Positions 3,253 to 16,285 of a stretch of 64,000 bases of DNA are shown here, one piece after another. Numbering within the stretch: the stretch's first letter is position 1; every line of letters starts with the position of its first letter. The notes beneath the pieces were generated by a model that was given only the letters and a program-made list of their open reading frames with translations, made no database searches and was not told where the DNA came from. The DNA lies in the NCBI GenBank assembly GCA_021802705.1, contig JAJZRL010000003.1, positions 14,142 to 78,141 of the forward strand. Direction: 5' to 3'. The stretch comes from a bacterium. Lineage in GTDB: Bacteria; Patescibacteriota; Minisyncoccia; Phycocordibacterales; Phycocordibacteraceae. Made by a program: the position numbers and the translations under genes.

Positions 3253-3265
3253 AATCTTAACCAAG

Positions 3266-3931: not shown

Positions 3932-3945
3932 AAACGAAACATGGC

Positions 3946-3974
3946 GCCGCCGGATCCTGGACCGGCGGTTTTTT
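3946..3974 (+). terminator. Rho-independent terminator
   Basis: GC-rich stem CCGCCGG...CCGGCGG followed by TTTTTTG. Confidence 0.7.
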
Positions 3975-4021
3975 GTTGCCGGTTGAAAGTAAAAAGAGCC
4001 ACGAGGGCTCTTTTGATGGAA

Positions 4022-4195
4022 TTACCTTTCACTGTTTTCTTTTTCGGCAAGGAATCGCTCTTCCAAGCGCGCGATCACTTGAGCCGGATCATCGCTTTCT
4101 CCTCTGAGGAAACTTCGGAATGATTCCTGCTCTACCGCAATGACAACTTCTTGCGAGCCATTCAATGAGACGGTATCTATGTTGTCTATCAACAT
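4022..4195 (-). CDS. Hypothetical small protein (57 aa), not in the supplied ORF track
   Basis: Own translation of the minus strand gives MLIDNIDTVSLNGSQEVVIAVEQESF...EKENSER with GAGGAG 7 nt upstream of the ATG. A bidirectional hairpin AGAGCC-ACGAG-GGCTCT flanked by A/T runs sits at 3991..4015. Confidence 0.35.
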   Translation of the reverse strand: MLIDNIDTVSLNGSQEVVIAVEQESFRSFLRGESDDPAQVIARLEERFLAEKENSER

Positions 4196-4445
4196 CACTA
4201 TTCTCCTCTAATTTAAAGAACGCATTGCGCTTGACTGTCCGATCTTTCCGGCCAGTCGTTCGGTACCATACACCCTTTATATGCAGGAGGCAATAGTCTC
4301 TGAGGATCAATATGGGGATTCCCCTACGTGACGCCATTCTGCGTTTCCAAACGTTCCGTTATGTTAGAATCAGCTCACCGGACTTCCCGGGGTCTTCAAT
4401 TGATTATACGTACTTATTATTTACAAGTTAAGTTCATCACACACT

Positions 4446-5102
4446 ATGCGCTTCCTTAAAAACCCTCGTTTCCTTTCCCTCGCGGTCGGTTCCGCCGTCG
4501 CGATGAGCCTTGTCGGAAACATTCCTGTCGCACAAGCGGCAACGCTCAGCACTGTCCAGATACAGGCCATCCTCAATCTCTTGCAGGCATTCAATGCGGA
4601 TGCGACGACGATCGCAAACGTACAAGCCGCGCTCGAAAACACCGCAACGTCCACGCAATCAGTGCTTCCACCGACCGGTTCGAGCTCGGAAGGACAAGCT
4701 TCTTCGTCACCGAGCGGAAGCCCTTGTTTCGTGTTTACGAACACGTTTAGCATCGGCTCTACCGACCGATCAACGGAAGGAGAAGTGTCCCGCCTGCAGG
4801 CCTTCCTCGGGAAATACAAGAGCATCTACCCCGAAGACGCCGTTACCGGCTTCTTCGGATCATCGACCCTGGCAGCCGTACAGAAATGGCAGGCCGAACA
4901 TGGCATCGTTTCATCCGGCAGCCCGGACTCTACCGGATTCGGAACTGTCGGACCATTGACCCGCGAAGACATGAATAAAGAGATGGAAAGAGAATGTGAG
5001 AATGGAGACATGTCCTCGTCTTCCTCCGACTCGACCGCATCCTCTTCTGACTCGTCAACGTCTTCTACGACATCCCAGGATTCGAGCTCGGGAGATAATT
5101 AA
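4446..5102 (+). CDS. Secreted peptidoglycan-binding-domain protein with Ser-rich C-terminus
   Basis: N-terminal signal peptide (AVGSAVAMSLVGNIPVAQA). PG_binding_1-like segment VSRLQAFLGKYKSIYPEDAVTGFFGSSTLAAVQKWQAEHGI. Low-complexity Ser/Thr/Asp tail. Confidence 0.65.
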   Translation: MRFLKNPRFLSLAVGSAVAMSLVGNIPVAQAATLSTVQIQAILNLLQAFNADATTIANVQAALENTATSTQSVLPPTGSSSEGQASSSPSGSPCFVFTNTFSIGSTDRSTEGEVSRLQAFLGKYKSIYPEDAVTGFFGSSTLAAVQKWQAEHGIVSSGSPDSTGFGTVGPLTREDMNKEMERECENGDMSSSSSDSTASSSDSSTSSTTSQDSSSGDN

Positions 5103-5121
5103 TCTTCTCTTCACCCTTAAA

Positions 5122-5158
5122 AACACACTCGCGACTATCGCGAGTGTGTTTTTTATTT
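5122..5158. terminator. Bidirectional rho-independent terminator
   Basis: AACACACTCGCG-ACTAT-CGCGAGTGTGTT, a 12-bp stem flanked by AAAA and TTTTTTATTTT. Serves the convergent genes 4446..5102 (+) and 5153..6745 (-). Confidence 0.8.
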
Positions 5159-6745
5159 TCCCGCCGGGATCGGTAACGTAACGACGAAAGTCGAGCCCTT
5201 CCCTTCCCCTTCGCTTTCAGCGTAGATGGTACCGCCATGAGCGATAACGATGTTCTTCGCGATAAAGAGCCCGTAACCGGTCGAATGGGTGTTTACCCTC
5301 TGCGAGTTTCTGCCATGGCCTCCTTCGGTAAAAAGCCGTTTTTTATCTTCGCCCGTGATGCCGACGCCGGTATCCTTTACGGCAAAGACGAAATTGCCGC
5401 TTTCTCGCTTGAGAGAAACGACGATGGAACCGGAGGGGGTGTAATTGATGGCATTGTCGATGAGATTGCGAAATACGTGATCGCCGATTTCTCCCTTATC
5501 ACCAACGAAAACAAAGGAAGCATCCGAACCGTCTGTAACGAAAGAGAGGTCGAGCCCCTTCTCTTCTGCGCTTGATCTTGCTTTTTCGACTTCTTCTGCC
5601 GCGAGTTGTGCGAGATCGAAAGGTTCTTTCTTATATTCCGTCGTCCCCTTCTTCTGATTCGACGCTTTGAGGATATCGGTAACCGCGACCAAATTCTCGC
5701 GCGATTGAGCGAGAGCGCGATCGACAAAAGGCCTCAATGCGTCCGGAAGAGCGCCGAGATCGCCCTCGGAAAGCGCGGCGAAGGCGCCCGTGTCTTTCGT
5801 GAGGAATCCCTTGACCTCATGCCCGATGAAATGAATGAGGCCTTCCTGCCGCTCGTTTATCTCCTTGAGCTCCTCCGCGAGTTTTTCAAGATTCAACGTA
5901 TCTTGCACGATTCTTACACTTCCAATTAAAACAACAGCAAACGCGGTAATGTTGATAACAATTTCGCTTACACTCGTTGAATATAAAACATTTATGAATG
6001 TAAATACCGTGACCATGAAACCCAAGAAGGCTGTTGTCACGACCTTGAGATTGAAAAGATGGTGGCGGTAGATCGCATACGAGGTTGCAACGACAAATGG
6101 GAGAAGAAATATGGCGCCGAGCGGGATGAAGCTTGAATTGTTAAAAATGACTGGGATAAATAAGTTGAAAATGAGAAGAAGTACGAATGTAATAATCGTT
6201 CCTGTGAGCATCATAGAATATGCTTGGCGTTGTTTTTTTGGCGCTTGAATTGTTTTGCGTATCAGTTTCAAAATTGCAAAAATGACAAGCAGCGAAACCA
6301 GTGTGCCGAAGAACGCGACAGCCGGGCCAGTTTGAACAGCGATAATTTCATTGCCTGTCCCAACAGAAGTCACGCGTTCAAATACATACGGAGTAAGTGT
6401 TAAGACGGATACCACACCGGTAATAGGTATAAGAATATAAGTGTGCCACCAAGGTTGATGGTAGTTGTCATCCGGAAATGCCGATGTTAGATGAAAGAAG
6501 GTAAATGCGTGCCACGTCGCAAAGAAAATCACGCCTCGGAGCAGCAAGAATGCGAAATTCCCATTGGGAAATTGGTAATAAGAATAATTCACTATGCTCC
6601 AAAAAATAGAAATGATTGCGAAGTAAAAAAACGAACGGTTCGTCGTCGAACGAGCATTATTAAAAACAATGACAAAACCAAGAAGACCCATGCTGGCAAC
6701 CGCTATACCGACAAAAAGAAGATCGAGATGAGAAGATAGCTGCAT
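5153..6745 (-). CDS. Sensor histidine kinase with multi-pass (about 7 TM) N-terminal domain
   Basis: ~300 aa of hydrophobic helices, then a HisKA-like H-box (FIGHEVKGF) and HATPase_c motifs (NLIDNAINYT, DTGVGI, GYGLFIAKNIVIAHGG). No response regulator adjacent. Last gene of the ThiF-like/nitroreductase operon (3-nt gaps). Confidence 0.8.
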   Translation of the reverse strand: MQLSSHLDLLFVGIAVASMGLLGFVIVFNNARSTTNRSFFYFAIISIFWSIVNYSYYQFPNGNFAFLLLRGVIFFATWHAFTFFHLTSAFPDDNYHQPWWHTYILIPITGVVSVLTLTPYVFERVTSVGTGNEIIAVQTGPAVAFFGTLVSLLVIFAILKLIRKTIQAPKKQRQAYSMMLTGTIITFVLLLIFNLFIPVIFNNSSFIPLGAIFLLPFVVATSYAIYRHHLFNLKVVTTAFLGFMVTVFTFINVLYSTSVSEIVINITAFAVVLIGSVRIVQDTLNLEKLAEELKEINERQEGLIHFIGHEVKGFLTKDTGAFAALSEGDLGALPDALRPFVDRALAQSRENLVAVTDILKASNQKKGTTEYKKEPFDLAQLAAEEVEKARSSAEEKGLDLSFVTDGSDASFVFVGDKGEIGDHVFRNLIDNAINYTPSGSIVVSLKRESGNFVFAVKDTGVGITGEDKKRLFTEGGHGRNSQRVNTHSTGYGLFIAKNIVIAHGGTIYAESEGEGKGSTFVVTLPIPAGK

Positions 6746-6748
6746 AAA

Positions 6749-7816
6749 TTACACGAATACAATATCAGGTGTACGGTGGCGATATGTTACAGCTGTCGGC
6801 TCATTGCCCACACCAATACGAAAGACAAGGACGGGCTCGTGGTCCTGATTGACGTGATTTTTAATGATCATGTAAGCTGCTCGGACACGCTCCTTTTCAC
6901 TCTCGCTGAAGATAGCACTGTTGTTTTCCATAGAACGTACGAGGAACGTGATGCCAGTCACGATTTGCATTGATAGTCCTCGCGCGGTTGCAAGAAGCCA
7001 TATACGCTCAAGCGCTTTACCTATCTCAAGATAGGTAACCCGATCCGTATGTGGCGCAGTGATTACACCCAATGCAGACGCCGCAGCATTTTGTTGCGCA
7101 TTCGTTTTTGCAACAATTTGTGAAAAGCCTATCTTGGTAAATAGCTTTGCAAAACTCCAATGTTTCAGAAGTCGGAATAATATTTGAGCAGGTGGCGGTA
7201 ATTCCAGCGTCTTGATGTAAAGTCCCTGTTTCCCCGATCGATTCTCTTTTTCGGACCAGAAGATGTTTTCAAAAAAAAGTTTGTGCAACGTGTGATTTCC
7301 AAGCGCTACTTCCTCCATTACCGTAAGCGCTTTTGCTACCTCTGACATCGAATCTCGAGACTCAATGAGCGAGAAATCCAATTCTGTACGCTCTGAGAGA
7401 AACGAATCAAGAATAGCGGTCCTCGTTTCTTTTGATAATGGAACCTTTTTATACGGTTTTCTGTTGGTGTGCCGTTTAAATATCGATTTCTGAAGAAACT
7501 CATCAGTTTTATCCAATCTTCCACCAACCTTAAGCTCCATCACAGCAACACAGGACCCATCTTCATGGAGTACAGTATGCGGCACGTATCCTTGTGCGCG
7601 TGCCTCAAGCTCAGCGTTCTGTAAGGCGGCGCCAAGCGCAATGAGAGTCCCTCCTTCTTTATAATTTAAGATCGGATTGTCTTTTTCGGGAAGGGCGTAA
7701 AATTCAATAGAGCTATCCTGTACGACAAAACGCCACGGCTGAGAATTATCTCCTGAAGGAGCGGCGGCTGCGGCAGTAAGTATCTTTGTTACTTTCTCTT
7801 TGTACGCCGTATCCAT
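6749..7816 (-). CDS. Nitroreductase-superfamily protein with a large internal insertion (two-domain, SagB/McbC- or Acg-like), 355 aa
   Basis: N-terminal hallmark AAAPSGDNSQPWRFVV (SxxNxQPW) and a C-terminal nitroreductase-like segment (ALGVITAPHTDRVTYLEIGKALERIWLLATARGLS), separated by ~150 aa. Translationally packed behind the ThiF-like gene. Confidence 0.65.
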   Translation of the reverse strand: MDTAYKEKVTKILTAAAAAPSGDNSQPWRFVVQDSSIEFYALPEKDNPILNYKEGGTLIALGAALQNAELEARAQGYVPHTVLHEDGSCVAVMELKVGGRLDKTDEFLQKSIFKRHTNRKPYKKVPLSKETRTAILDSFLSERTELDFSLIESRDSMSEVAKALTVMEEVALGNHTLHKLFFENIFWSEKENRSGKQGLYIKTLELPPPAQILFRLLKHWSFAKLFTKIGFSQIVAKTNAQQNAAASALGVITAPHTDRVTYLEIGKALERIWLLATARGLSMQIVTGITFLVRSMENNSAIFSESEKERVRAAYMIIKNHVNQDHEPVLVFRIGVGNEPTAVTYRHRTPDIVFV

Positions 7817-7819
7817 ATT

Positions 7820-8941
7820 CTAGAGACCTATTGCGGCAAAGAAACCCGCGCGCGCTTTTTCGCGAGCAATTTTCACGTGCGGTGCATGATATTCCGGATC
7901 AAGGAGCGCATCGAGACTAATCTCGCATTTCTCTTCGTTCACGATCTGCCCAAGCGCGAGCCGCTTCAAGATATAGGAGATGGCAACGCCCGAAAGCGTC
8001 GCGGCATCGCCGAGCTGCGGCCAGGAATAAATCTCGCGGCCGACCTGGAGGAGCGAGCTCATCATGCGTTCGGTCACAAGCTCGGGACCGGCGATCTTCG
8101 TCGCCAGTTTGGGCAAGTCAGACGGTATAAACGATTTGAACATCTCTATGTTTACATCGCCGATGACGCCATTGAAAAGCTGTTTCGTCTTGACCGTATC
8201 AAAGCGTTCCACCTCAACGATAATGTTGTCGCCGTTATCGGTCGCCATAACGACCGGAATGCCGCGCTCGCGAGCCGCGAGCCGCAACCGTATCTTCATC
8301 TCAAGATTGTCAGTCTCCTCAACGAGGACATCAGCATCCTCGAGGAAGGCACTCATGGTTTCTTCCGTAACGCCTGAATCGAATGTTTCGATCTCGGCAT
8401 AGGGATTCAGCTGATAAATATACTCACGCACCAGATCGGTCTTTTTCCGGCCGAGATCGAGAAAGTCAAAGCGAATGCGGTTTAAGTTTGAGGGTGAGAC
8501 CTCGTCCGGATCGGCAATTTTTATATGACGCGCGCCGCCCATGAGCGCGAACGTAAGGGCGCCATGACTGCCAACGCTTAGCCCTGCGTATGCGACCGTT
8601 AGGCCATACAGTTTCTTCTGTTCTTCTTTCGTAATAATGTTTCGGTTACGCGCGGTGCGTATTTCCTGATGCTCGTCGTGTGGCAGATAATGCACGAGGA
8701 TCTTGTTCCACGGAAAGAAAAACCATTCTCCCACTTCTTCAATCGGCTTCTCTCCGCAATACTCTTTCGTGAACGCTTCGACTTCAATCGCATGATCTTT
8801 GATGAATTTAAATCGCGGATTACGGATGAGAAACAAATCCTCCAAAAGGAGATTGTAGCGATCAATTACTTTTGACGGTTGAAGACGGTCGCGAAAGGCT
8901 GAAAACGATTCCTTTAATCGGTCAAGTCGTTCTGGCTGCAT
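7820..8941 (-). CDS. ThiF/MoeB (E1-like) family adenylyltransferase-like protein with N-terminal extension
   Basis: Nucleotide-binding region GLSVGSHGALTFALMGGARHIKIADPDEVSPSNLNRI (the D-x-D-x-V-x-x-SNLNR motif of the E1 superfamily) after a ~120-aa N-terminal region. No ThiS/MoaD-like or YcaO gene nearby. Confidence 0.65.
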   Translation of the reverse strand: MQPERLDRLKESFSAFRDRLQPSKVIDRYNLLLEDLFLIRNPRFKFIKDHAIEVEAFTKEYCGEKPIEEVGEWFFFPWNKILVHYLPHDEHQEIRTARNRNIITKEEQKKLYGLTVAYAGLSVGSHGALTFALMGGARHIKIADPDEVSPSNLNRIRFDFLDLGRKKTDLVREYIYQLNPYAEIETFDSGVTEETMSAFLEDADVLVEETDNLEMKIRLRLAARERGIPVVMATDNGDNIIVEVERFDTVKTKQLFNGVIGDVNIEMFKSFIPSDLPKLATKIAGPELVTERMMSSLLQVGREIYSWPQLGDAATLSGVAISYILKRLALGQIVNEEKCEISLDALLDPEYHAPHVKIAREKARAGFFAAIGL

Positions 8942-9020
8942 GTTGAAATAGTAGCACGGGAACTCACGTTATTAGAACGGAGGCTGAGAAACCCCTTGAA
9001 CTCAGACACCCTGTGCAGTG

Positions 9021-9054
9021 CACGGATAAAGAAACGCCCGACGAATCGGGCGTT
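9021..9054 (-). terminator. Terminator of the ClpP-like gene
   Basis: AACGCCCGA-CGAA-TCGGGCGTT stem followed on the minus strand by TCTTTAT. It separates 9073..9615 from the ThiF-like operon. Confidence 0.65.
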
Positions 9055-9072
9055 ACAAAAAGAACTCAATCA

Positions 9073-9615
9073 TTATGATTTTGGCAACGAGACTATCTCA
9101 TGTGCGAAACCTAACTTGATCGCCTGATCCGCATCGAGAGTCCTCTCGTTGCGAAGAATCAGCTTCGCCTCCTTCTTGCTCGTCTTGCCGCCAGTCCTTT
9201 CTTCAATGATTCGGAAATATTTCCCTTCCTCAACCAGAAGTTCTTTCTGCATCCGTTCGGCATCGAGAGTGTCGATCTTGACTTTTTCGTCAAAACTCTG
9301 ACTCATATGGTGAAACCATAGAGTCGTTTCTGGCGTGATCACTCGATGATCGCCCATTAGATACAACAGAGGCGCGATAGAGGCAAGCCTGCCGAGTGCT
9401 ACTGTTTGAAGCTTTGGGCGAAGAATGTGGCGAACAAGTTCATATATGGCAAAGGCAGGACTTACCTTGCCGCCACCCGAGCATATAAACAAAGAGATCC
9501 AGTTTCCGCGATTTTCAAGCATCGATTTGCTGAGATCCCCGCCGAGTTTCTCCATACTCCTTCCGTTGACTTCATCAAAGAAGGTTGTTATTTGCGACGG
9601 ACTGCATTGGTGCAT
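9073..9615 (-). CDS. ClpP-like (S14 family) serine peptidase homologue, stand-alone, 180 aa
   Basis: ICSGGGKVSPAFAIYELV resembles ClpP INSPGG-SVTAGLAIYDTM. Ser in GRLASIA, His in WFHHM and a candidate Asp are retained. AAGGAG RBS upstream. No clpX nearby. Confidence 0.55.
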   Translation of the reverse strand: MHQCSPSQITTFFDEVNGRSMEKLGGDLSKSMLENRGNWISLFICSGGGKVSPAFAIYELVRHILRPKLQTVALGRLASIAPLLYLMGDHRVITPETTLWFHHMSQSFDEKVKIDTLDAERMQKELLVEEGKYFRIIEERTGGKTSKKEAKLILRNERTLDADQAIKLGFAHEIVSLPKS

Positions 9616-9652
9616 GATTTCTCCTTAATCCGTGAGTGAAAGAACTGGGGAA

Positions 9653-9681
9653 AATATACATTAGATCTTATAATTTGTCCA
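9653..9681 (-). promoter_or_regulatory. Sigma-70-like promoter (TGGACA-17 nt-TATATT) for the ClpP-like gene
   Basis: On the minus strand, ggtaTGGACAaattataagatctaatgTATATTttcc lies ~40 nt upstream of the AAGGAG RBS. The -35 box is 9 bp from the IS30 terminal repeat. Confidence 0.45.
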
Positions 9682-9689
9682 TACCTTGT

Positions 9690-10647
9690 GGTGAATTCAA
9701 CCCGCTAAAGCACCACCCCAAGCTTCTGATGGCGTCTTCCAGCCGAGGCGTTTCCTCGGCCTCGTATTCAAAGCATACCCCACGACAGCGATTTCCTCCT
9801 CGGACACGAGATCGAAGTCAGTGCCCTTGGGAAAGAACCTGTGTACCAAACCGTTCGTATTCTCGTTCGTCCCACGCTCAAAGGAGGAATACGGGTGGGC
9901 GAAGTACACCTTTGCGTTCGTGAGCGCCTGAAGCTCCCGCCAGTATTGGTTCTCGCTTCCATTGTCGAGGGGTCAGTGTGTGCGCGTACGCTCTTGAGAC
10001 GTCGCGCGACCACGGCGGTTGTCGCTTCTGCCGTCTTCGCGGGCAGTTTCGACAGGAACAGGAGCCCGCTTCGGCGGTCGACGAGCGAATTGAGCCCTGG
10101 AGCGTGGTTCTTGCCTTCGATCGAGTCGCCCTCCCGGTCGCCGAGGCGGGTACGTTTCTCGACGACCGTCGGTCGTGTATCGATGCTCGGTCCTTTCGGG
10201 CGCAAAACACGGCGCGCCTTGCGACCGCCCATCCTCTGCCGGCGTGTATCTGCGCGTACACGAATTGGCATATGGCCTCGTGCGATATCGGCTCGGGCGC
10301 GGTGTTCGCGATCTGCTCGGGCGACCAGCCCGCCTTGAGTCGCTCCACGACGTATACCCTCAGCTCGGGGTACTTCAGGCGCTCTTCCGCGTTCCCGGGA
10401 TTTCCGCTTCGCAAGCGCCCGCTTGTGTGCGAGTCGCGGGGTGTACACCCGCCGTTCGGGAGGCAAGTTCTTGTTGATCTCCCGAACGATCGATGAGTGC
10501 GCCCGCCCCAGCCGCTTCACAATCGACCGTACCGATTCTTTTTCCCACAAGCCGCACTGTATTTCCTCCCGTTCCTCGACGCTCAACTGCCGGTATGCCA
10601 TATCCGCTCATGTTAGCGGAGTGGTGCTTTAGCGGGTTGAATTCACC
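9690..10647 (-). mobile_element. IS30-family insertion sequence (958 bp) with perfect 27-bp terminal inverted repeats and a disrupted transposase
   Basis: GGTGAATTCAACCCGCTAAAGCACCAC at 9690..9716 and its exact reverse complement at 10621..10647. IS30-transposase pieces lie in three frames between them. No clear target-site duplication. Confidence 0.8.
9697..10601 (-). pseudogene. IS30-family transposase, frameshifted or degraded
   Basis: N-terminal HTH (MAYRQLSVEEREEIQ...IVKRLGRAHSSIVREINKN) in ORF 9768..10601. Middle (LKAGWSPEQIANTA...HEAICQFVYAQIHAG) in ORF 9878..10414. C-terminus (ENTNGLVHRFFPKGTDFDLV...LNTRPRKRLGWKTPSEAWG) in ORF 9697..9909. No single intact reading frame; the DDE region is garbled. 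Confidence 0.75.
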
Positions 10648-10737
10648 TGAGGCGCGTTTGCCCGCAAGGAGATTTTATGGTAGGATTTCAGTGCACGATA
10701 CACATCGTGCCTCTTACTGCAAATGGAGAAGATACCG

Positions 10738-11949
10738 ATGAGCGAAACCCATAGATTGTCCGCTTTAAAAAGAGCGGAGCTTGAAGTAAATCGCGAGAGA
10801 ACGAGCGAGGGCTTTCTGAGATTTGAGGTCTCTTCTCCGGAAGCCATAGAGCGTGCATTGTCGGTGAGTGATCTCACCGCCGAAGATGCGCCTGAGCACA
10901 TTGTTAACATCATTAAGGATGAGGTAGTAAAAAACCTGCCCAGGTTGGGAATGGGTGAAGTGCGTATCGTCAGAGGCAATCCAATAGTTTCTGTCGAGGA
11001 TAACTTCGACAAGTTGTTATTCCCCGCGGACAACGCCGGCAGATCGTCTACTTACACTCGATATGTGGATGAGGACCATATCTTACGAACACACACTTCT
11101 GCACCTGTACCGGAAACCCTCAAGAGCTTTTATCAAGAATTCAAGGGCGATATTCCCGATACGGTTTTCGTTTTCCCGGGCTTAGTCTATAGAAGGGATG
11201 TCATTGACCGGAAACATCTTGATGTCTTTCATCAGCTGGATATTTGGACTTTACGGAAAAATGGTTCGAGAGAACCGGTCACGAGCGAAGATTTGTTAAG
11301 CTTAGTCAACATCATCTTCGAATCGGCCTTGCCTGGGAAGCGGCCTATCGTCTACCCCGCCGTTCATCCGTATACTCTCAAAGGAATCGAGGTATATGCG
11401 GAGTTCAACGGGGCGGAGCTTGAAGTTCTTGAAGCAGGACTGGCTCATCCCGAAGTGTTGCGCGGGGCAGGTTTTGATCCAGCTTTATATTCAGGACTTG
11501 CCTTGGGGATGGGCCTTGACCGGCTGGCGATGTCACTGAAAGGAATGTCTGACATTAGGTACCTGCGTTCTAAAGATCCGAGAATCTCCGCGCAGTTGTT
11601 GAATAGCGAAAAATTCAAGGAAGTGTCCAACCAGCCTCCCATTGCTCGTGATATGTCCTATTGTGTTCCAGAAAACTACACAGAGGAGGATATTTGCGAG
11701 GAAATAAAGGATGCGTTTGGAAAAGATGCTTACTTGGTCGAGGATGTAAAGATCGCAGCGAGGACGAAGTACAAAGACCTGCCCCAAGTTGCCAAAAATC
11801 GACTTGGCGCACTTGAAGGACAGGATAATGTTCTCGTTAAGATAACTCTCAGGCATCCCGACAAAACGCTGACGAGAAAAGAGGCTGACGGATTATATGA
11901 CCAGGCCTACCCAAAATTAAATAAGGGAACTAGGGGATACGTTCGCTAG
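10738..11949 (+). CDS. Monomeric phenylalanyl-tRNA-synthetase-like protein: PheS-type class II catalytic core fused to C-terminal FDX-ACB anticodon-binding domain (mitochondrial FARS2-like architecture)
   Basis: PheS motif 1 region NFDKLLFPADNAGRSSTYTRYVDEDHILRTHTSAPV. Motif 2 FPGLVYRRDVIDRKHLDVFHQLD. Motif 3 GLALGMGLDRLAM. C-terminal FDX-ACB-like IARDMSYCVPE...VLVKITLRHPDKTLTRKEADGLYD. GGAGAAG RBS before the second ATG (MSETHRL). Local GC (~48 %) is lower than the surrounding core. Confidence 0.7.
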   Translation: MSETHRLSALKRAELEVNRERTSEGFLRFEVSSPEAIERALSVSDLTAEDAPEHIVNIIKDEVVKNLPRLGMGEVRIVRGNPIVSVEDNFDKLLFPADNAGRSSTYTRYVDEDHILRTHTSAPVPETLKSFYQEFKGDIPDTVFVFPGLVYRRDVIDRKHLDVFHQLDIWTLRKNGSREPVTSEDLLSLVNIIFESALPGKRPIVYPAVHPYTLKGIEVYAEFNGAELEVLEAGLAHPEVLRGAGFDPALYSGLALGMGLDRLAMSLKGMSDIRYLRSKDPRISAQLLNSEKFKEVSNQPPIARDMSYCVPENYTEEDICEEIKDAFGKDAYLVEDVKIAARTKYKDLPQVAKNRLGALEGQDNVLVKITLRHPDKTLTRKEADGLYDQAYPKLNKGTRGYVR

Positions 11950-11999
11950 CGCGAACGACGTTGTTACCCTAAGGGAGTGGCAACATGAGCCGCTCCTTT

Positions 12000-13247
12000 T
12001 TATTTTTCTTCACTATCAAAATGCTTTTTTAAGAAAGCCTCTACCTCGAGTGTTTTTATTGGATCCGCGTATTCGCTTACATATAAATCTGACTCTTGTC
12101 GATGCCTAAGCTCAGACCAGTTTTCTTTTTCTCCAAAAATTCTTCGTGCCCCTTGCATGAGTGATAGCCCGAGATTCGGGTAGACATCGTCCACTCCGTG
12201 CGCGAGGTAATACATGAGGTTGCGTTGGAAAGTGCTTTGTTCCTCCGCCCTTTCATCGTAGTTTGACAAACTATATTTCGGGTAACAGGCGTCAAGAAGC
12301 GTTTTGGGGATATCCCACAATGGCATAAGGAGCTTTGTTCCTCCAAAGCTGCGTGTAGGAAATGAGAGCGGTTTTTGCCCATTTATAAGTGAGAACAAAA
12401 GATCGGCGAGAAGATCCTCTCGGTTAAACCCGAGTAGATATTCTGTTGCCCCAATCTCCCTGCATAATCTGCGCGCTACTAATGAAATGAGATATGTGCC
12501 AAAGAAGTGGTTCGTGTTGCTTCCGAATTTCTCACAATACTCTTCGTAAAACTCGCGAGAAGATCGCTTCATGCGAAGCAATCCCTTGAGATCTGTCTCG
12601 CTAAAAATCTTGTGCTCAAGACCATAAGTTTGACAGAGAAGAGCGGCTCGTTCAGCAGCTGAGGACGGCCAAATAGGATCAAAAATGATCGTAAAAAAGG
12701 TAATATTTACGTCCCTAATCTCTGAAAAATCTTTCAATGCCTGCGCCAGAGTATTGCTATCTCCGCCGCCTGAGATACCAACCACGAGTTTATTGCTTCT
12801 ACTCTCTCGTGTCATAAAGGATTGAACCTTTTCTTTTATGATCTCTCTAGCAGATTCCGGATTAAATTCCTGGATGGTCTCGACGCAACCCTTCTCGCCA
12901 AGAGTAACGCTAGGGATGGCGATAACGGAATTCTTCACATTTTTATATATGATCTTTTGCGGCACAATGCTCCGAAGGTCGGTGTTGCGAATGCAACGCA
13001 GTTCTATCTCTTGATCTTCCGGGATGGTGGATATTATGGTCGTTAGCGGAACTGGAGTTACATTTTTTTCTTTTTTCAAATAGCCCTGAAATAAACTGGG
13101 TGGAAGATGTTTGGCTCGCAAAATCTCTTGCAACGTCACGGCATCAGAGGATCGAATATTTATTTCCTCGGAAACTGTCTTTATAATAATACTTCTGACC
13201 ATGGCGAAGAAATTCCAACGGAAGTTGGCAATTTTATCGAGTCTCAA
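12000..13247 (-). CDS. PP-loop superfamily ATPase (N-type ATP pyrophosphatase, TilS/ThiI/TtcA-like) with uncharacterised ~150-aa N-terminal domain
   Basis: SGGxDS P-loop in KLVVGISGGGDSNTLAQAL at residue ~155. The ORF track start is a TTG; the first ATG (MVRSIIIKTV) gives 12000..13202. Very AT-rich (~40 % GC) relative to the core. Confidence 0.65.
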   Translation of the reverse strand: MRLDKIANFRWNFFAMVRSIIIKTVSEEINIRSSDAVTLQEILRAKHLPPSLFQGYLKKEKNVTPVPLTTIISTIPEDQEIELRCIRNTDLRSIVPQKIIYKNVKNSVIAIPSVTLGEKGCVETIQEFNPESAREIIKEKVQSFMTRESRSNKLVVGISGGGDSNTLAQALKDFSEIRDVNITFFTIIFDPIWPSSAAERAALLCQTYGLEHKIFSETDLKGLLRMKRSSREFYEEYCEKFGSNTNHFFGTYLISLVARRLCREIGATEYLLGFNREDLLADLLFSLINGQKPLSFPTRSFGGTKLLMPLWDIPKTLLDACYPKYSLSNYDERAEEQSTFQRNLMYYLAHGVDDVYPNLGLSLMQGARRIFGEKENWSELRHRQESDLYVSEYADPIKTLEVEAFLKKHFDSEEK

Positions 13248-13533
13248 CTGAAACTCTTAATTGAAAGCGCAGAGCGCCGAGGTACACAAAATATGCTCGA
13301 TTCGCGCATTGGTAAGGCAATCGAGACCCATGTCAGATAAAGAAGCAAACATGTTATTTACCACCTCATTAGATATGGTGCCCTGCCAGTCCATAATCGA
13401 ATTCACATGCATTTTGACGGATGCGACGCTAGACATTGTGGTGAGGTTAAGACCAATAAAGCCAGTAGGCTGGCTTAAACATAGTGTACTCTGGGATTTT
13501 TAAAGTGCAATATATCTAGCAAACCTGTGCAGG

Positions 13534-15102
13534 CTATGACGGACGCGCCACCCACGGCTGTTTGATTCCCGGCTTAAAATAAAGGGGGTCCTCGTATGGC
13601 CAAAAAACGAGTCTCGGCTCCGCACGTTTCCCGAGAAAGTCAGAAAGTTCTCTAAATTCTGAATTTTTTTCGCGCAGATTCTTGATGATTTCTGCAAGAA
13701 GCTCCGACGCAAGAACCTTTGCAATATCCTTCTTCGGTTTCTGTTCAAGATTGATCTCTAGGTATTGGTCGTGGTTTTCATCGTACTTCGTGATGAGCGT
13801 GAGCTTACCGGTCAGGCAGTCGACAAAGCTCTTGTTAAGCAAAACTTCCTTGATTGTCTCGGGATACACCTGGAGGCCGTAAATCGTTGTAGCGAGATCG
13901 ATGCGTTCGAAAACATATACGAATGGCAGCTTGTACACGGAATCACTGATGCCGGCAGCTTGCGCTTCTTTCAAGAGATCGACGCCGTGCGTTTTGTATC
14001 GCTCGATAAGTTCGTTAAATGTGTAGACTCCCCCATAGTCTCCGATGGAGTAGCGGAGAAGCGGCAGTGCACTGTCTCCTGACACGAGGATTTCTCCGTT
14101 GGGCGCTTCAAACGAAACGAATTGCGGTATGTACTGCGCAAACGTCGGCGTCTTTGTGATACCACCGAATACATCGGCAAACAGTTTTTTGTCAGACAGC
14201 GCAAGGCGCCGCGCGAGAATGGAGAAAGGGGTCTCGAACGCCATGGTGCCGATATCGGCGCTCCCATAGATATTAATCGCATCGGTAATAGGATTTTTTA
14301 TGCCAACGCGCTTCGCGACGTAATCACGAAAATGCTCCGTAAACGCCTCGGCCGCAAAAAGGAGGAGTGTGCGATTCTTATCAAAACGAATACCCTGCGC
14401 GAGCGCTTCGTCAATAACATCCTTGAGGAAAGGGGGATACCCTGCGAGAATGATTTGTTTGTATTGTGGCGCGATATTTTCGAGTGCTTTCAAGATTTCC
14501 GCTTTATTTATACCGGGCGTGAGAATGGAGACTGGGTATCCGCGACGGCCCATGAGTTCGAAGGCCTGATAGGTAATGACGCCACCGATCCATACGCCCA
14601 TGCCAAAACAAACAATGACTAACGTCGACTCATTCTTCTTCAGGGAGCTTGAGCGGAAAATGAGTTCGTGGATAAGTGACGACTGTTCGTCGATGCTGGG
14701 TGAACGGGCGAAGTATGTCGGCTTCCCCGTCGAGCCGGAGGTTGCGGTAAGGACATACGGTGATTGAACAGAGCCATGCCACAAGAGATCGGGAAACGGG
14801 TTCTTCCAAAGATAGTTCTTCTTTGTTATGACCGGCACAGAAGCAAGATCTTTCGTCGTACGAACGGCGTCATGACGAAGATGATTTGCACGAAGGAAAT
14901 CCCGATAGGCCGGCACATCGAGCGCCATGCGCTTAAAAAGTGAGTGGGCATGCGTCTTTTCAGCGCGAGACCAGTCGACGCCCTGAAAAGCACGCAAGGT
15001 ATTGAAAAAATTAGCTGGGGAGGAAAAGCCCGACTTGAAAGCCGTCGCCGACGTTTTATGGGACGTCGTTTTAACTGAACTCATGAAATTATATAATACC
15101 AT
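13534..15102 (-). CDS. Adenylate-forming enzyme of the phenylacetate-CoA ligase (PaaK)/coenzyme F390 synthetase family
   Basis: ANL-superfamily phosphate-binding loop LTATSGSTGKPTYF with PaaK-type N-terminal region (...DLASVPVITKKNYL...), 522 aa. Alternative start at the second ATG (MSSVKTTS, 15084). No SD upstream; an A/T-rich promoter-like region at 15103..15150. Confidence 0.7.
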   Translation of the reverse strand: MVLYNFMSSVKTTSHKTSATAFKSGFSSPANFFNTLRAFQGVDWSRAEKTHAHSLFKRMALDVPAYRDFLRANHLRHDAVRTTKDLASVPVITKKNYLWKNPFPDLLWHGSVQSPYVLTATSGSTGKPTYFARSPSIDEQSSLIHELIFRSSSLKKNESTLVIVCFGMGVWIGGVITYQAFELMGRRGYPVSILTPGINKAEILKALENIAPQYKQIILAGYPPFLKDVIDEALAQGIRFDKNRTLLLFAAEAFTEHFRDYVAKRVGIKNPITDAINIYGSADIGTMAFETPFSILARRLALSDKKLFADVFGGITKTPTFAQYIPQFVSFEAPNGEILVSGDSALPLLRYSIGDYGGVYTFNELIERYKTHGVDLLKEAQAAGISDSVYKLPFVYVFERIDLATTIYGLQVYPETIKEVLLNKSFVDCLTGKLTLITKYDENHDQYLEINLEQKPKKDIAKVLASELLAEIIKNLREKNSEFRELSDFLGKRAEPRLVFWPYEDPLYFKPGIKQPWVARPS

Positions 15103-15177
15103 ATATTGTGTGCTAATGTAAAGACTTCCGCGGGTATTCAGTGGCCAGAAGTACTTGAGAGGATTAGGATAGATTTG

Positions 15178-15864
15178 CTATTTATCTGATTTGTTTTGCG
15201 CGATTCCGATGAGCCCATAGTCGCGCGGGAAGAGCTTCTGGGCGATCCTGAATATGCCGTAGGCCATGAAAGGCGCCGCGAATACGTCGATCGAATAGTG
15301 GACGTGGGCTAAAAGCACCGCAACGGCGAAAACGAAAGAAAGCGATAGGAGCGTGGTTCGCAAGACGGGCTTCTGCCAGAAAATGAGCGCCATAAGAAAC
15401 GGGAGGCCGGTGTGCCCCGAGAAGAAGAATCCGGTCTGGAAATCGAGGTAGGTATAAATGCTGTCAAGAAAGCCAGACCCGGGATCTATCTGGCCCGGAT
15501 AGATGCCCACGTGCGTGAGGGAGGTGAAAAACGCGCGGGTCGCGATAAAGAGCGCCACAGCCTTGAGCGTAAAGAGGATGTAGCGTGGCTTTGAAAATAC
15601 GAGGATCGTTCCTGCCACGATACTGAAAAGCGCTCCCTCGACAATGATGAGGTTCAAATTGATACTAGGGATGTTATCGAGAAGGATGTCGCCCACGTAG
15701 ACGGATGTCGGGCGCGTAAGATACGAAAGCGCGTAAACGGAAGCGACATGCTCGAACGCAAACGCGATGACGAGAAGAAAGATAGCGACGGCAAACGAGT
15801 AGAGGTTCTCCTTCTTTAAAAGGTCCCGATAGGTGAAAGGATCCTGGTGAGACGGTGTTTCCAT
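15178..15864 (-). CDS. PAP2-superfamily membrane phosphatase-like protein
   Basis: Six TM helices. PAP2 motif 2 (FFFSGHTG) and motif 3 (LLAHVHYSIDV). Confidence 0.6.
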   Translation of the reverse strand: METPSHQDPFTYRDLLKKENLYSFAVAIFLLVIAFAFEHVASVYALSYLTRPTSVYVGDILLDNIPSINLNLIIVEGALFSIVAGTILVFSKPRYILFTLKAVALFIATRAFFTSLTHVGIYPGQIDPGSGFLDSIYTYLDFQTGFFFSGHTGLPFLMALIFWQKPVLRTTLLSLSFVFAVAVLLAHVHYSIDVFAAPFMAYGIFRIAQKLFPRDYGLIGIAQNKSDK

Positions 15865-15877
15865 TTGTTTACGGTGC

Positions 15878-16285
15878 CTACGGATTATTAAAGCATTTCA
15901 CGCAACGACATCCCCGCGGCTTGATGTGCTCGTCGAAATACTCTTCTCCATAGTCGTACGAGAACTCGTCGCCTGCTTTGATATTCCGAATGGCATCGAT
16001 GAAGATACGGCCCCGCACTATTTCCGGCCTGCAATTGGGACGACAGGAATGATTGATATACCGCGCGATATTCTCACGGGTCGCGCCATCGATCGTCTTG
16101 CGAGAGTTCACTTCGAAAAGATATTTGCTGCGGCTCGTATACGCCTCTTTAGCGGATATCGTCCGGCCGAAATATTCGATGATACGCTCGCCCTTCTTGA
16201 AGGGGCGAGCCGCGAAAAGTCCGAGCCCTGCGGTCGAACGCTTCACAATCACTCCCTCCGGATACGCCGGTTTCTTCTTTCGCAT
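15878..16285 (-). CDS. SET-domain protein (putative protein-lysine methyltransferase), 135 aa
   Basis: Hallmark SET motifs NHSCRPNC and EFSYDYG. Post-SET-like Cys pair CRCVKC at the C-terminus. Confidence 0.75.
   Translation of the reverse strand: MRKKKPAYPEGVIVKRSTAGLGLFAARPFKKGERIIEYFGRTISAKEAYTSRSKYLFEVNSRKTIDGATRENIARYINHSCRPNCRPEIVRGRIFIDAIRNIKAGDEFSYDYGEEYFDEHIKPRGCRCVKCFNNP

Follow-up and report, generated by a model that had tools for sequence, protein, structure and literature searches.

In the microcin C system, the C-terminus of a ribosomal peptide, a heptapeptide, is activated with ATP by the ThiF-like enzyme MccB, which yields a mimic of an aminoacyl-adenylate, and the last residue of the peptide sets the target, AspRS. 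In tRNA modification, TtuA works with the small partner protein TtuB (~65 aa), the C-terminal tail of which enters the active site of TtuA (cf. PDB 5gha). Tiarins are trifolitoxin-like RiPP inhibitors of aminoacyl-tRNA synthetases, and the synthetase encoded in a tiarin cluster always matches the residue before the modified Gln and has been read as a resistant immunity copy (bioRxiv 10.64898/2025.12.02.691738). PheRS, HisRS, SerRS, PP-loop enzymes, and Patescibacteria are not mentioned in the tiarin paper (bioRxiv 10.64898/2025.12.02.691738). The mitochondrial PheRS (FARS2) has been stated to be the only monomeric class II synthetase (PMC3275996). Here, we describe a bacterial single-chain relative of this enzyme, SrmL, the gene of which forms a compact cassette with those of a small peptide (ending in ...A-F-N) and a PP-loop ATPase. 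The combination of peptide, PP-loop ATPase, and synthetase is apparently undescribed. The features of the locus are collected in Table 1; the window referred to throughout is the whole stretch of DNA that was analyzed (64 kb).

Table 1. Position and nature of the features around srmL in the window.
Feature	Coordinates	Strand	Description	Basis
srmL	10738..11949	+	403 aa, single-chain PheRS-like class IIc synthetase	Pfam, NCBIfam, AlphaFold2/Foldseek, family alignments
Terminator-like hairpin	11971..11999	+	GC-rich, T run after; between convergent srmL and PP-loop gene	Consensus scan
PP-loop ATPase	12000..13202	-	400 aa, SGGGDSN motif; TtuA/NcsA/TilS-like core	
Small ORF, candidate precursor peptide	13257..13436	-	59 aa, MSSVASVKMHVNSIMDWQGTISNEVVNNMFASLSDMGLDCLTNARIEHILCTSALCAFN	Conserved position, homologues
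PaaK-like adenylate-forming enzyme	13534..15102	-	522 aa, directly upstream of small ORF	Weak PaaK and F390-synthetase matches

The open reading frame of srmL extends from an upstream ATG (10723-11949, +) and would encode 408 aa; the start that gives the 403-aa product is Met6 of this frame and is the choice of gene callers on identical DNA. In the 408-aa numbering, the motifs quoted in the preliminary description lie at 121 (LRTHTS), 155 (VYRRD), 169 (FHQLD), and 258 (GLALGMG). Pfam assigns tRNA-synt_2d to aa 54-291 (E 5.9e-34) and FDX-ACB to aa 302-402, the latter with 29.9 bits, slightly below the gathering score of 31.1. In Foldseek searches with the AlphaFold2 model (pLDDT 91.7, pTM 0.89) the best PDB matches are the human mitochondrial PheRS structures 3cmq, 5mgh, and 8p8x, which cover the whole chain (E ~1e-27, TM 0.71-0.74 over ~400 columns), and bacterial PheS alpha chains match the catalytic half only (TMq ~0.5). 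Because of this structure match, the C-terminal domain is settled as FDX-ACB-like despite its sub-threshold Pfam score. SrmL is thus a single-chain, FARS2-like relative of PheRS with intact class II motifs, and the architecture proposed in the preliminary description, a PheS core joined to an FDX-ACB domain as in FARS2, is borne out by Pfam, the AlphaFold2 model, and Foldseek, with tRNA-synt_2d found by the domain scan and FDX-ACB confirmed by structure. One further locus, L087, shares 99.994% nucleotide identity with the window; it was rejected as an independent SrmL relative because it represents the same organism, which made a dN/dS comparison void, and this comparison was dropped.

SrmL and FARS2 (3cmq, 3tup) both carry a class IIc catalytic module and an FDX-ACB anticodon-binding domain in one chain, and in both, motif 2 is one residue longer (YRRDxID) than in E. 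coli (YRND-YD). The sequence RDMSY of the long SrmL form aligns with NDISF of the human mitochondrial enzyme and is kept. However, the two proteins share only ~24-26% identity, the substrate pocket is HPY plus Glu237 in SrmL and FPF plus Gly in FARS2, and SrmL has an additional N-terminal helical extension of ~45 aa; it is moreover bacterial, accessory, and cassette-linked. With bacterial PheS alpha, SrmL shares the catalytic fold, the class II motifs, and ~30-35% core identity, but its extension of ~45 residues cannot be aligned with the N-terminal region (~90 residues) of E. coli PheS, and its own chain includes the anticodon-binding domain, which is normally found at the end of PheT.

Judged by its profile score, the protein is already a member of a curated family and is not unrecognized: it passes the NCBIfam model NF051887, "PheS-related mystery ligase SrmL," with 393.5 bits (cut-off 300, E 8.2e-118; aa 49-402 on model positions 2-349 of 349). 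It fails both TIGR00469 (pheS_mito; 148 bits, cut-off 258.35) and TIGR00468 (bacterial PheS; 105 bits, cut-off 237.45). The long and short SrmL paralogues of CPR genomes pass NF051887 as well. The name given by the NCBI curators leaves the function open; NF051887 supplies a name without a function, and neither NCBIfam nor Pfam reflects the association with a PP-loop ATPase and a small peptide. A literature search on SrmL, PheS paralogues, monomeric bacterial PheRS, and PP-loop enzymes with RiPPs yielded no description of SrmL or of the cassette.

Neither of the other two cassette proteins has a specific model in NCBIfam or Pfam. The PP-loop ATPase matches Pfam ATP_bind_3 and, weakly, TilS/TtcA, phmmer against the PDB finds NcsA (6scy), and the Foldseek matches of its AlphaFold2 model (pLDDT 93.8) are TtuA, NcsA, and TilS. 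The tRNA-modifying enzymes TtuA and TilS are the best structural matches, but the cassette protein lacks their Fe-S cysteine triad and zinc fingers, has C190 and C306 as its only conserved cysteines, and possesses an extra beta-rich N-terminal domain (aa 1-113) for which no match was obtained. The family is rare, with 100 representatives at E<=1e-30 among 1.84 billion. The small ORF matches no family in Pfam or NCBIfam; it shares the strand of the PP-loop gene and precedes it by 54 nt. The peptide ends in ...CTSALCAFN, with Phe at position -2, and its last ~30 residues are conserved across phyla, from CPR to Actinomycetota, with a variable N-terminal half. In contrast to TtuB, it has no Gly-Gly end; together with the variable N-terminal half, this makes the peptide look like a substrate and not like a ubiquitin-like carrier. 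srmL and the PP-loop gene are convergent, the end of srmL being 50 nt from the PP-loop stop codon. The hairpin between them, a consensus match, has an 11-bp stem with 6 GC pairs followed by TTATTTTT, and from its position it would serve both genes.

It had been suggested that SrmL is a paralogue that charges a non-canonical substrate for the neighboring enzymes. The neighbors of relevance to this idea are the conserved 59-aa ORF and the PP-loop ATPase, and not those that had been seen at first. The ThiF, nitroreductase, ClpP-like, histidine kinase, and PaaK-like genes were rejected as members, as none recurs in other cassettes. The PaaK-like protein has no homologue in any other cassette locus, and its gene is regarded as a lineage-specific neighbor, the membership of which is uncertain. 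The histidine kinase family recurs near SrmL in five loci, not consistently. PADLOC, run on SrmL, the PP-loop protein, and the PaaK-like protein, gave no match to anti-phage defense systems.

The cassette recurs in other genomes. In at least 12 cases, a PP-loop homologue is on the same contig as an SrmL homologue or has a neighboring locus tag, and the small ORF immediately precedes the PP-loop gene in the window, in L002, L018, L045, L093, L095, and L097, and in 34 metagenome loci. A homologous small ORF occupies this position in every cassette for which the upstream DNA is present, and it was never found in SrmL loci without a PP-loop gene; peptide and PP-loop gene always occur together. A synthetase adjoins the pair in ~32 loci besides the window, and its gene lies downstream, divergent, or convergent relative to the small ORF. 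The peptides measure 51-95 aa, and their last residue varies (N, F, I, L, E, V, M).

Across ~45 cassettes from Patescibacteria and Actinomycetota, the type of the neighboring synthetase follows residue -2 of the peptide. Peptides with Phe at this position (...AFN or ...AFF) are accompanied by SrmL or another single-chain PheRS in 15/15 cases, at distances of <=81 nt in the metagenome loci. With His (...AHI or ...AHL) the partner is a HisRS in 15/17, the other two being contigs of <2 kb without a flank, and with Ser (...ASE) it is a SerRS in both cases (2/2). The cassette HisRS reaches 347 bits on TIGR00442 (cut-off 287) and the SerRS 474 bits on TIGR00414 (cut-off 302). No synthetase lies near the high-GC cassettes in which residue -2 is Gln, Asn, or Ser (...ASV). 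The pairing of His with HisRS occurs in two very distant PP-loop clades (CPR-like and Actinomycetota), and Phe pairs with two distinct clades of single-chain PheRS, one of which has a fully canonical FPFT pocket. The loci share ancestry, which makes this rule a matter of about six to eight independent lineages and not of 32, and the Phe specificity of SrmL itself is assumed from homology.

By analogy with tiarins and microcin C, SrmL may be the immunity PheRS of a peptide-derived PheRS inhibitor, a proposal to which we give an even chance. The PP-loop enzyme would use ATP to activate the C-terminus of the peptide, as those two systems suggest; together, residue -2 and the modified final residue would resemble an aminoacyl-adenylate, and the synthetase specific for residue -2, in this case PheRS, would be blocked. 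SrmL would be the producer's insensitive replacement PheRS, charging tRNA-Phe while the alpha2beta2 enzyme is inhibited. In the single-chain format, one mobile gene would do the work of pheS and pheT, and the SrmL genes outside cassettes, of which there are many, would represent orphan genes for immunity. Among the roles proposed in the preliminary description, an antibiotic-resistance decoy was one, and its resistance part gains most, since the synthetase tracks one peptide residue as in tiarins; for the same reason, a working replacement enzyme fits better than a decoy.

The cassette resembles tiarin clusters in that a small precursor peptide lies beside a synthetase gene and the specificity corresponds to the residue before the presumed modified one. 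However, the tiarin hallmarks TfxB and TfxC (FMN dehydrogenases) are absent from the cassette core, the nitroreductase-like gene of the window (6749-7816) being ~4 kb away and absent from all other cassettes. Furthermore, the conserved Gln of tiarins has no counterpart in the peptide alignment, the defining enzyme is a PP-loop ATPase, the key residue is counted as -2 from the C-terminus, and the synthetases are class II enzymes (Phe, His, Ser). The likeness to microcin C lies in the many Phe-type peptides that end in Asn, which is the last residue in only part of them, and in genes for S66/MccF-like peptidases, GNAT proteins, and methyltransferases near some loci. In contrast to microcin C, the cassette uses a PP-loop ATPase and a much longer peptide, the synthetase corresponds to residue -2, and the terminal residue varies; no ThiF-like gene is conserved with the cassette, that of the window (7820-8941) being unique to this locus. 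S66/MccF-like peptidase, GNAT, and NUDIX hydrolase genes recur near the loci and are gene types used in immunity to such inhibitors.

Several observations count against a role of SrmL in immunity. Most SrmL genes are cassette-less, and one clade sits in housekeeping synteny. The His/Tyr/Glu changes in the SrmL pocket could mean a different substrate and not drug insensitivity, and the shorter second SrmL of CPR genomes is left unexplained. The closest structural relatives of the PP-loop enzyme act on tRNA and not on peptides, and a nearby synthetase is missing where the peptide of a high-GC cassette has Gln, Asn, or Ser (...ASV) at -2.

A biosynthetic role is rather unlikely, in which SrmL makes Phe-tRNA-Phe or Phe-AMP and the PP-loop enzyme uses either to modify or extend the small peptide. 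This can be likened to the PEARL enzymes and to the tRNA-dependent step of the valanimycin SerRS VlmL. The nearest structural relatives of the PP-loop protein, TtuA, NcsA, and TilS, bind tRNA, the packing is tight (PP-loop-SrmL gaps of 0-81 nt in many loci), and aromatic amino-acid genes occur near some SrmL loci. Synthetases in gene clusters are known both for tRNA-dependent steps and for resistance (bioRxiv 10.64898/2025.12.02.691738; cf. PMC11962472 on PEARL enzymes). However, if an amino acid were added from tRNA, there would be no reason to expect this very amino acid at -2 of the encoded peptide. His-tRNA and Ser-tRNA should normally come from the HisRS and SerRS of the host, which leaves little need for an additional standard copy. 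A PP-loop partner is, moreover, missing for most SrmL genes, and in a search of ~95 loci with ARAGORN no consistent tRNA gene and no dedicated tRNA gene in any cassette was found. In one locus, a tRNA-Phe gene lies 44 nt downstream of SrmL, which is an anecdotal observation.

SepRS and PylRS illustrate that this subclass of synthetases can evolve new substrates. With this precedent, SrmL might charge a tRNA, or a modified nucleoside like GluQRS, with an amino acid other than Phe, the PP-loop enzyme might alter the same tRNA, and the small ORF might be regulatory or an adaptor; we consider such a tRNA-centered module improbable. It is the active site that speaks for it. The Phe-sandwich reads HPY in SrmL where PheS has FPF, and in the alignment His215, Tyr217, and Glu237 take the positions of E. 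coli F248, F250, and G271. H215, P216, Y217, T218, and E237 are invariant in 77/78 SrmL sequences from three phyla, the exception being a degenerate paralogue in L059. The quoted PheS motifs are present in SrmL, as had been noted, but "near-identical" overstates the likeness, with FPF replaced by HPY and one of the glycines in the LEVLGCG strand by Glu. Weak SepRS matches were seen, the PP-loop fold matches enzymes that modify the anticodon and the T-loop, and the name "mystery ligase" commits SrmL to no substrate.

Other residues speak for catalytic competence or for Phe. The family-invariant residues of SrmL comprise HPYT and LE(A/C)G, and Arg157 of motif 2, Phe169 (E. coli F206), and Arg267 of motif 3 are likewise invariant in the SrmL alignments. 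The pocket alignment proposed in the preliminary description finds the ring-size gate of E. coli PheS kept, with T218 for T251 and A260 for A294. In human mitochondrial PheRS, F232 and F234 pack against the substrate ring (PMC3275996); they align to H215 and Y217, and SrmL thus has no two-Phe pocket. In eukaryotic cytosolic PheRS, however, Asn and Tyr stand in place of the two Phe residues (PMC3275996), which means that HPY does not exclude Phe, and the pocket changes were withdrawn as proof of a non-Phe substrate since a genuine PheRS differs there as well. Furthermore, the sister cassettes contain HisRS and SerRS that pass equivalog cut-offs and a single-chain PheRS with the canonical FPFT pocket; what the cassettes have in common is therefore an ordinary synthetase with the specificity that matches. 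Conservation of the peptide as amino acids across phyla is also not what is expected of a mere regulator. Many CPR genomes contain a second, shorter SrmL, which lacks Asp310 of RDMSY.

The absence of a pheT gene nearby, mentioned in the preliminary description, holds for the whole window: tblastn with E. coli PheT finds no match in the 64 kb at E<1e-2, and all ten tested ORFs of ~570 aa or more have other Pfam assignments (RpoB, RpoC, DnaG, UvrD-type helicase, and others). E. coli PheS matches srmL only, and within the window neither a split pheST pair nor a C-terminal domain other than FDX-ACB was found. In ~1.3 Mb of CPR DNA from SrmL loci, the E. coli PheT query gave no match at E<1e-2 either, but as only ~1 match is expected there by chance, this result is uninformative.

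The absence of pheS and pheT from the 64 kb, together with intact catalytic and anticodon-domain motifs and a CPR clade in which SrmL lies beside gyrB, thrS, and dnaE, could be taken to mean that SrmL is a housekeeping enzyme, a monomeric PheRS that replaced pheST and is the only one of the organism. However, 64 kb are a small part of a genome, and cultured Actinomycetota and Proteobacteria, in which SrmL also occurs, have ordinary pheST. The family is found in only 262/185,579 species genomes, cultured Actinomycetota included, and is thus not a general CPR solution, and PheRS beta subunits have been reported from CPR bacteria (PMC5370408). A genuine sole monomeric PheRS, as had been considered, is for these two reasons very unlikely. 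In addition, srmL sits on a low-GC island beside an IS30 remnant, and the patchy distribution, the low GC content, and the IS30 remnant fit a mobile accessory gene. An att-site repeat of the tRNA-Asn 3' end was sought as the boundary of the island and not found. Most SrmL genes have no cassette within 10 kb, and those linked to a PP-loop gene are scattered among the orphan ones in the tree. Clustering of the ORFs within ±10 kb of 75 SrmL loci gave no partner conserved in all of them. The recurring blocks around these loci reflect synteny of close relatives, and the actinobacterial contexts (ZnuA/ABC-3, LysR, DegV, glycosyltransferase) are variable and uninformative.

Control by a leader peptide, in which the Phe, His, or Ser codon near the stop of the small ORF responds to the level of charged tRNA and thereby controls the genes downstream, like pheM in the case of pheST, would also explain the match of codon and synthetase and has a precedent in the annotated leader of E. 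coli pheST, but is hardly credible given a single sensing codon, ~30 residues conserved as amino acids from CPR to Actinomycetota, a synthetase gene that is downstream, divergent, or convergent and hence often not co-transcribed with the small ORF, and, in the window, a convergent srmL with a terminator-like hairpin between it and the PP-loop gene.

Whatever its role, SrmL, labeled a mystery by NCBI, gains a concrete and testable genomic context, and three genes with a peptide the sequence of which predicts the target form a small set for standard assays. Should SrmL indeed be the immunity PheRS of such an inhibitor, the cassette would provide, independently of tiarins and microcin C, a second natural scaffold that can be re-aimed at different synthetases by changing one residue, which would be directly useful for antibiotic design. 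It would also provide a bacterial PheRS encoded by one gene, which could serve as a compact enzyme that is orthogonal or insensitive to drugs, and would point to chemical warfare by Patescibacteria, from which, to our knowledge, very few natural products are known. The view that no class II synthetase other than mitochondrial PheRS is monomeric (PMC3275996) would then need qualifying. Even if SrmL has no part in immunity, the perfect agreement of synthetase type with peptide residue calls for an explanation in terms of mechanism.

Tentatively, and with less confidence than in the immunity role alone, the observations can be joined into one picture. The cassettes might represent a new class of programmable synthetase inhibitors that derive from ribosomal peptides and are produced by a PP-loop enzyme of the TtuA/TilS-like kind; residue -2 would set the target (PheRS, HisRS, SerRS, and perhaps more), and the adjacent synthetase would confer immunity. 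Single-chain PheRS, that is SrmL and its FARS2-like sister in Patescibacteria, might have spread as one-gene replacements of pheST in an arms race, and the orphan SrmL genes of Actinomycetota might be acquired resistance to inhibitors that their Patescibacteria epibionts produce. The same protein clade might be the closest bacterial relative of mitochondrial PheRS. A CPR protein different from SrmL is far closer to FARS2 (L056:17973-19115, 189-191 bits).

The protein at 10738-11949, SrmL, had been described as a single-chain, mitochondrial-type phenylalanyl-tRNA synthetase (PheRS) with no pheT nearby, and this is correct, because its architecture is that of such an enzyme and the window holds no other PheS or PheT. 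Pfam places the PheS class II core (tRNA-synt_2d) at residues 54-291 (E 5.9e-34) and an FDX-ACB domain at residues 302-402, the latter at a sub-threshold 29.9 bits (gathering score 31.1). The AlphaFold2 model, with 51 homologues in the alignment, is confident (pLDDT 91.7, pTM 0.89), and its top PDB matches are human mitochondrial PheRS (FARS2; 3cmq, 5mgh, and 8p8x), fitted over the whole chain (E ~1e-27, TM 0.71-0.74), whereas bacterial PheS alpha chains align to the catalytic half only. No PheT-like sequence or second PheS-like gene was found in the 64-kb window, where the ten tested ORFs of at least about 570 aa all encode other proteins, such as RpoB, RpoC, DnaG, and a UvrD-type helicase. 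The start at 10738 is Met6 of the ORF and yields the 403-aa product that gene callers give for identical DNA from other samples. Comparison locus L087 is 99.994% identical to the window across 16.7 kb, and is therefore the same organism and no independent relative.

The protein passes the NCBIfam model NF051887, "PheS-related mystery ligase SrmL" (393.5 bits, cut-off 300), and falls below the curated models for mitochondrial PheRS (148 vs 258 bits) and bacterial PheS (105 vs 237 bits). By itself, srmL is thus another member of a family already catalogued, its function unexplained; our literature search found neither the name SrmL nor bacterial PheS paralogues of this type. The nearest homologues (54-92% identity) are nearly all in assemblies of Patescibacteria (CPR). 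With each species represented by one genome, a scan detected relatives in 262 of 185,579 species, which form two groups: CPR genomes, and cultured Actinomycetota (including Microbacterium, Brevibacterium, Pseudonocardia, and Tessaracoccus) with some Proteobacteria, which carry a shorter form (~360-375 aa, 40-42% identity). Many CPR genomes contain two neighboring paralogues, a long one like that of the window and a short one, ~45% identical and both above the SrmL cut-off. At L059, a degenerate third paralogue adjoins a short SrmL; it is probably catalytically dead, since the motif 2 acidic residues (D159K, D162G) and the motif 3 glycines are gone.

The ATP-side class II residues are invariant in SrmL (motif 2 Arg157, Phe169, motif 3 Arg267), as are LRTHTS and Gln171, and on this sequence evidence we read SrmL as a competent adenylate-forming enzyme. 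The amino acid pocket was compared with those of E. coli PheS and human mitochondrial PheRS by alignment. The Ala gate, singled out for inspection in the preliminary description, is retained as A260 (E. coli A294; Ala of human GWAFGLG), and T218 (T251; T235) is also kept. Mutation of A294 in E. coli PheS loosens ring-size selectivity, and T251 is the other position with this effect. Changed are H215 (E. coli F248, human F232), Y217 (F250, F234), E237 (G271, Gly of LEVLGCG), and D173 (E210, E159). The two Phe residues of the PheRS pocket pack edge-to-face on the substrate ring, and the eukaryotic cytosolic PheRS, a genuine enzyme, has Asn and Tyr in their place, so that the HPY of SrmL is compatible with Phe (PMC3275996). 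Probably, SrmL still binds a Phe-like ring. In the C-terminal domain, RDMSY is retained in the long form, where it lines up with NDISF of the human mitochondrial enzyme; its Asp and Tyr are the counterparts of the residues that bind G34 in the Thermus B8 domain. The short CPR form has lost the Asp. SrmL probably binds a tRNA anticodon.

Clustering the ORFs of 75 SrmL loci revealed no universal neighbor, and three contexts recur. In one CPR clade, SrmL lies directly upstream of gyrB, thrS, and dnaE, a housekeeping synteny. In seven related loci (L051 and matching parts of L053-L056, L058, and L061), the short SrmL accompanies a block of a divergent LysRS-like gene (238 bits, cut-off 468), two dCTP-deaminase-like genes, a methyltransferase, a LysA-like decarboxylase, and an S66 (LdcA/MccF-like) peptidase. 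A related set occurs at a single long-form locus, L094, and comprises a methyltransferase, an AsnRS-core-like gene, an S66 peptidase, and ProRS. These could be biosynthetic or immunity sets, or lineage synteny only. In the third context, which is that of the window, a TtuA/TilS-like PP-loop ATPase gene directly adjoins SrmL. Single loci showed further neighbors: in an 83%-identical relative, chorismate mutase, prephenate dehydratase, and a class IV aminotransferase lie 4-6 kb upstream; in a Nomurabacteria locus (L005), SrmL is followed immediately by a branched-chain aminotransferase, with a Tyr-decarboxylase-like PLP enzyme between the two paralogues; and a tRNA-Phe(GAA), seen at no other locus, lies 44 nt downstream of one orphan SrmL.

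Features of the window and of comparison loci (L numbers: loci from other genomes or metagenome contigs)
Feature	Location	Strand	Remark
tRNA-Asn(GTT)	window 28-100		low-GC stretch begins after it
7TM-type histidine kinase	window 5153-6745	-	
Nitroreductase-like protein	window 6749-7816	-	
ThiF-like E1	window 7820-8941	-	
ClpP-like protease	window 9073-9615	-	
IS30-family transposase remnant	window 9768-10601	-	directly upstream of srmL
srmL ORF	window 10723-11949	+	408 aa
Hairpin and T run	window 11971-11999		
PP-loop ATPase	window 12000-13202	-	
Small peptide ORF	window 13436..13257	-	59 aa; 54 nt ahead of PP-loop start
Third SrmL-like paralogue	L059:11252-12379	+	
Short-SrmL block	L051:7180-14358		
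Long-form set	L094:247-6917		
Aromatic amino acid genes	L093:2249-4306		
Aromatic genes	L005:11268-12185, 4737-6353		
tRNA-Phe(GAA)	L012:11268-11340	-	
Membrane protein, ~165 aa, multi-pass	L002:12785-13279; L012:11813-12463; L045:14084-14590		
NUDIX hydrolase	L105:1757-2257; L106:4288-4733; L107:3119-3553; L109:1291-1833		
HisRS cassette	L095:9792-12628; L097:7788-10587		Amycolatopsis sp. cg5; Saccharopolyspora
Distant PP-loop locus	L096:7911-12766		Pseudomonas sp. CGJS7
FARS2-like PheRS	L056:17973-19115; L090:10001-11143; L092:9123-10265	-; +; +	380 aa, Patescibacteria

The PP-loop family is small (112 homologues in a word-indexed search; 100 at E<=1e-30 when a full profile search was run on 1.84 billion cluster representatives), and its spread over CPR, Actinomycetota, and a few Proteobacteria parallels that of SrmL; at least 12 homologues apparently share a contig with, or have a locus tag neighboring, an SrmL homologue. 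PP-loop enzymes adenylate carboxylates or carbonyls. The model of the window protein is confident (pLDDT 93.8), and its nearest structures are TtuA and NcsA, then TilS. Unlike these tRNA-modifying enzymes, it lacks the Fe-S cysteine triad, with C190 and C306 its only conserved cysteines, and has an additional N-terminal beta-rich domain. In the window, srmL and the PP-loop gene are convergent, and a strong hairpin plus T run separates the two.

In every cassette locus, the PP-loop gene is immediately preceded by a small same-strand ORF; that of the window encodes MSSVASVKMHVNSIMDWQGTISNEVVNNMFASLSDMGLDCLTNARIEHILCTSALCAFN. An HMM built from seven such ORFs was run on 80 metagenome contigs collected with the PP-loop alignment and recovered the ORF in 34, each time just upstream of the PP-loop gene; it found none in SrmL loci without a PP-loop gene. 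The N-terminal half of the peptide is variable, while CPR and Actinomycetota versions alike conserve the last ~30 residues (lF.sL.e.Gld.lT...iE.i.C[TA]S[AS]L.A-X-Z); Pfam and NCBIfam hold no model for it. A NUDIX hydrolase adjoins four cassettes and a membrane protein lies near SrmL in three loci; these recurring genes could serve detoxification or export.

The type of synthetase that adjoins the peptide and PP-loop pair depends on residue -2, the second-to-last of the peptide. Peptides ending in ...AFN or ...AFF are joined by SrmL or another single-chain PheRS (15/15; at most 81 nt away in metagenome loci), those ending in ...AHI or ...AHL by HisRS (15/17, the two exceptions being contigs <2 kb with no flank), and those ending in ...ASE by SerRS (2/2). 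The HisRS scores 347 bits against TIGR00442 (cut-off 287) and the SerRS 474 bits against TIGR00414 (cut-off 302). The His rule applies in two PP-loop clades that are very distant from one another, one CPR-like (~52% identity to that of the window) and one from actinomycetes (~38%; Amycolatopsis, Saccharopolyspora), and the Phe rule in two different single-chain PheRS clades, the partner at L103 and L113 being of a FARS2-like clade with a fully canonical pocket (FPFT, LEVLGGG, GWAFGFG). For each of the three synthetase families, the matching residue is the chemically identical one and stands at a single fixed position of the peptide. Because the loci are phylogenetically related, the independent observations may amount to 6-8 lineages; the chance of this covariation is roughly estimated at 1 in 1000, allowing for a choice among ~9 conserved positions. 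High-GC metagenome cassettes (L129-L137) with Gln, Asn, or Ser at -2 (...AQM, ...AQV, ...ANV, ...ASV) have no synthetase in the contig and instead carry a truncated P450-like gene, a TauD-like gene, a NodU-like carbamoyltransferase, and an aldo-keto reductase. The two actinomycete cassettes (peptide ...AHL or ...GHI, PP-loop gene, HisRS) are arranged compactly on a single strand, that of Amycolatopsis within a prophage-like stretch (Lsr2, resolvase, GH25 lysin, and DUF397/HTH_31 genes). Among the PP-loop homologues examined, the most distant (Pseudomonas, 28% identity) has no synthetase or recognizable peptide beside it; with TauD, a 241-aa unknown protein, a GNAT acetyltransferase, a methyltransferase, and an MFS transporter, its locus looks like a small biosynthetic cluster.

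In clusters of tiarins, trifolitoxin-like RiPP synthetase inhibitors, the specificity of the synthetase is invariably that of the residue preceding a modified Gln; producers also have a housekeeping copy at another genomic site, and the cluster-borne one is interpreted as a resistant immunity enzyme (bioRxiv 10.64898/2025.12.02.691738). The SrmL cassette is not a tiarin cluster, since the tiarin hallmark enzymes and conserved Gln are absent and none of its components is mentioned in the tiarin paper (bioRxiv 10.64898/2025.12.02.691738). By analogy, the tiarin logic carries over to it, and the cassettes would make peptide-derived synthetase inhibitors alongside an immunity synthetase. What the analysis demonstrates is the architecture, the cassette, and the covariation; for the chemistry, inhibition, and immunity we infer that the PP-loop enzyme would use ATP to activate the peptide C-terminus, and that residue -2 with the modified last residue would mimic an aminoacyl-adenylate. 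SrmL would be an insensitive PheRS guarding the producer, its single-chain format letting one gene substitute for pheS and pheT, and the orphan copies of SrmL would confer immunity on their own. The presence, near some loci, of genes for S66/MccF-like peptidases, GNAT, and NUDIX proteins is consistent with this theme. We favor SrmL as the immunity synthetase of a peptide-derived PheRS inhibitor with evenly divided confidence. Several observations sit poorly with it. Orphans make up the majority of SrmL genes, and some of these lie in housekeeping synteny; the model assigns nothing to the second, short paralogue; the same pocket substitutions occur throughout the family; and the PP-loop fold is tRNA-like. 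A biosynthetic, tRNA-dependent role of SrmL is a much less likely alternative, and a tRNA-centered module, or one with a non-canonical substrate, is slightly less likely again. That SrmL is the sole housekeeping PheRS of its organism is very improbable, given its rarity and its occurrence in organisms certain to have pheST, such as the cultured Actinomycetota and Proteobacteria. Furthermore, PheRS beta subunits are reported from CPR bacteria (PMC5370408). Leader-peptide control by the small ORF is the least probable of all.

A second single-chain PheRS of Patescibacteria, FARS2-like, has an FPYT pocket and a strong FDX-ACB domain, and resembles human mitochondrial PheRS (189-191 bits) much more than bacterial PheS (135 bits). 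It falls narrowly below both the pheS_mito and SrmL cut-offs, and its best 120 database clusters, all at least 78% identical, are named hypothetical by NCBI. At L090, its gene lies just upstream of gyrB, the slot held by SrmL in another CPR clade. The peptide/PP-loop/synthetase cassette and the residue -2 rule are absent from the literature searched and from Pfam, NCBIfam, and PADLOC models. A bacterial FARS2-like enzyme family bound to this rule is unexpected for specialists, and the SrmL "mystery ligase" is now directly testable.

The window resembles a CPR chromosome; its RpoB (1067 aa) and RpoC (1243 aa) are both short. Within it, srmL lies with the rest of the cassette in a ~15 kb stretch of lower GC (~1000-16000; 0.43-0.54 vs 0.56-0.60), at whose far edge no repeat of the tRNA-Asn 3' end was found. 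The IS30 remnant, apparently frameshifted because it is read in two overlapping frames, has a GC of 0.58 inside this stretch (0.43-0.50). Between the island edge and srmL lies a gene set (5153-9615) in which the nitroreductase-like and ThiF-like proteins together resemble a split Rv1355c-family protein; none of its kinase, nitroreductase-like, ThiF-like, and ClpP-like genes recurs in other cassettes. The histidine kinase family recurs near SrmL in five loci, and a tRNA-Asn is also found near the related loci L059 and L108.
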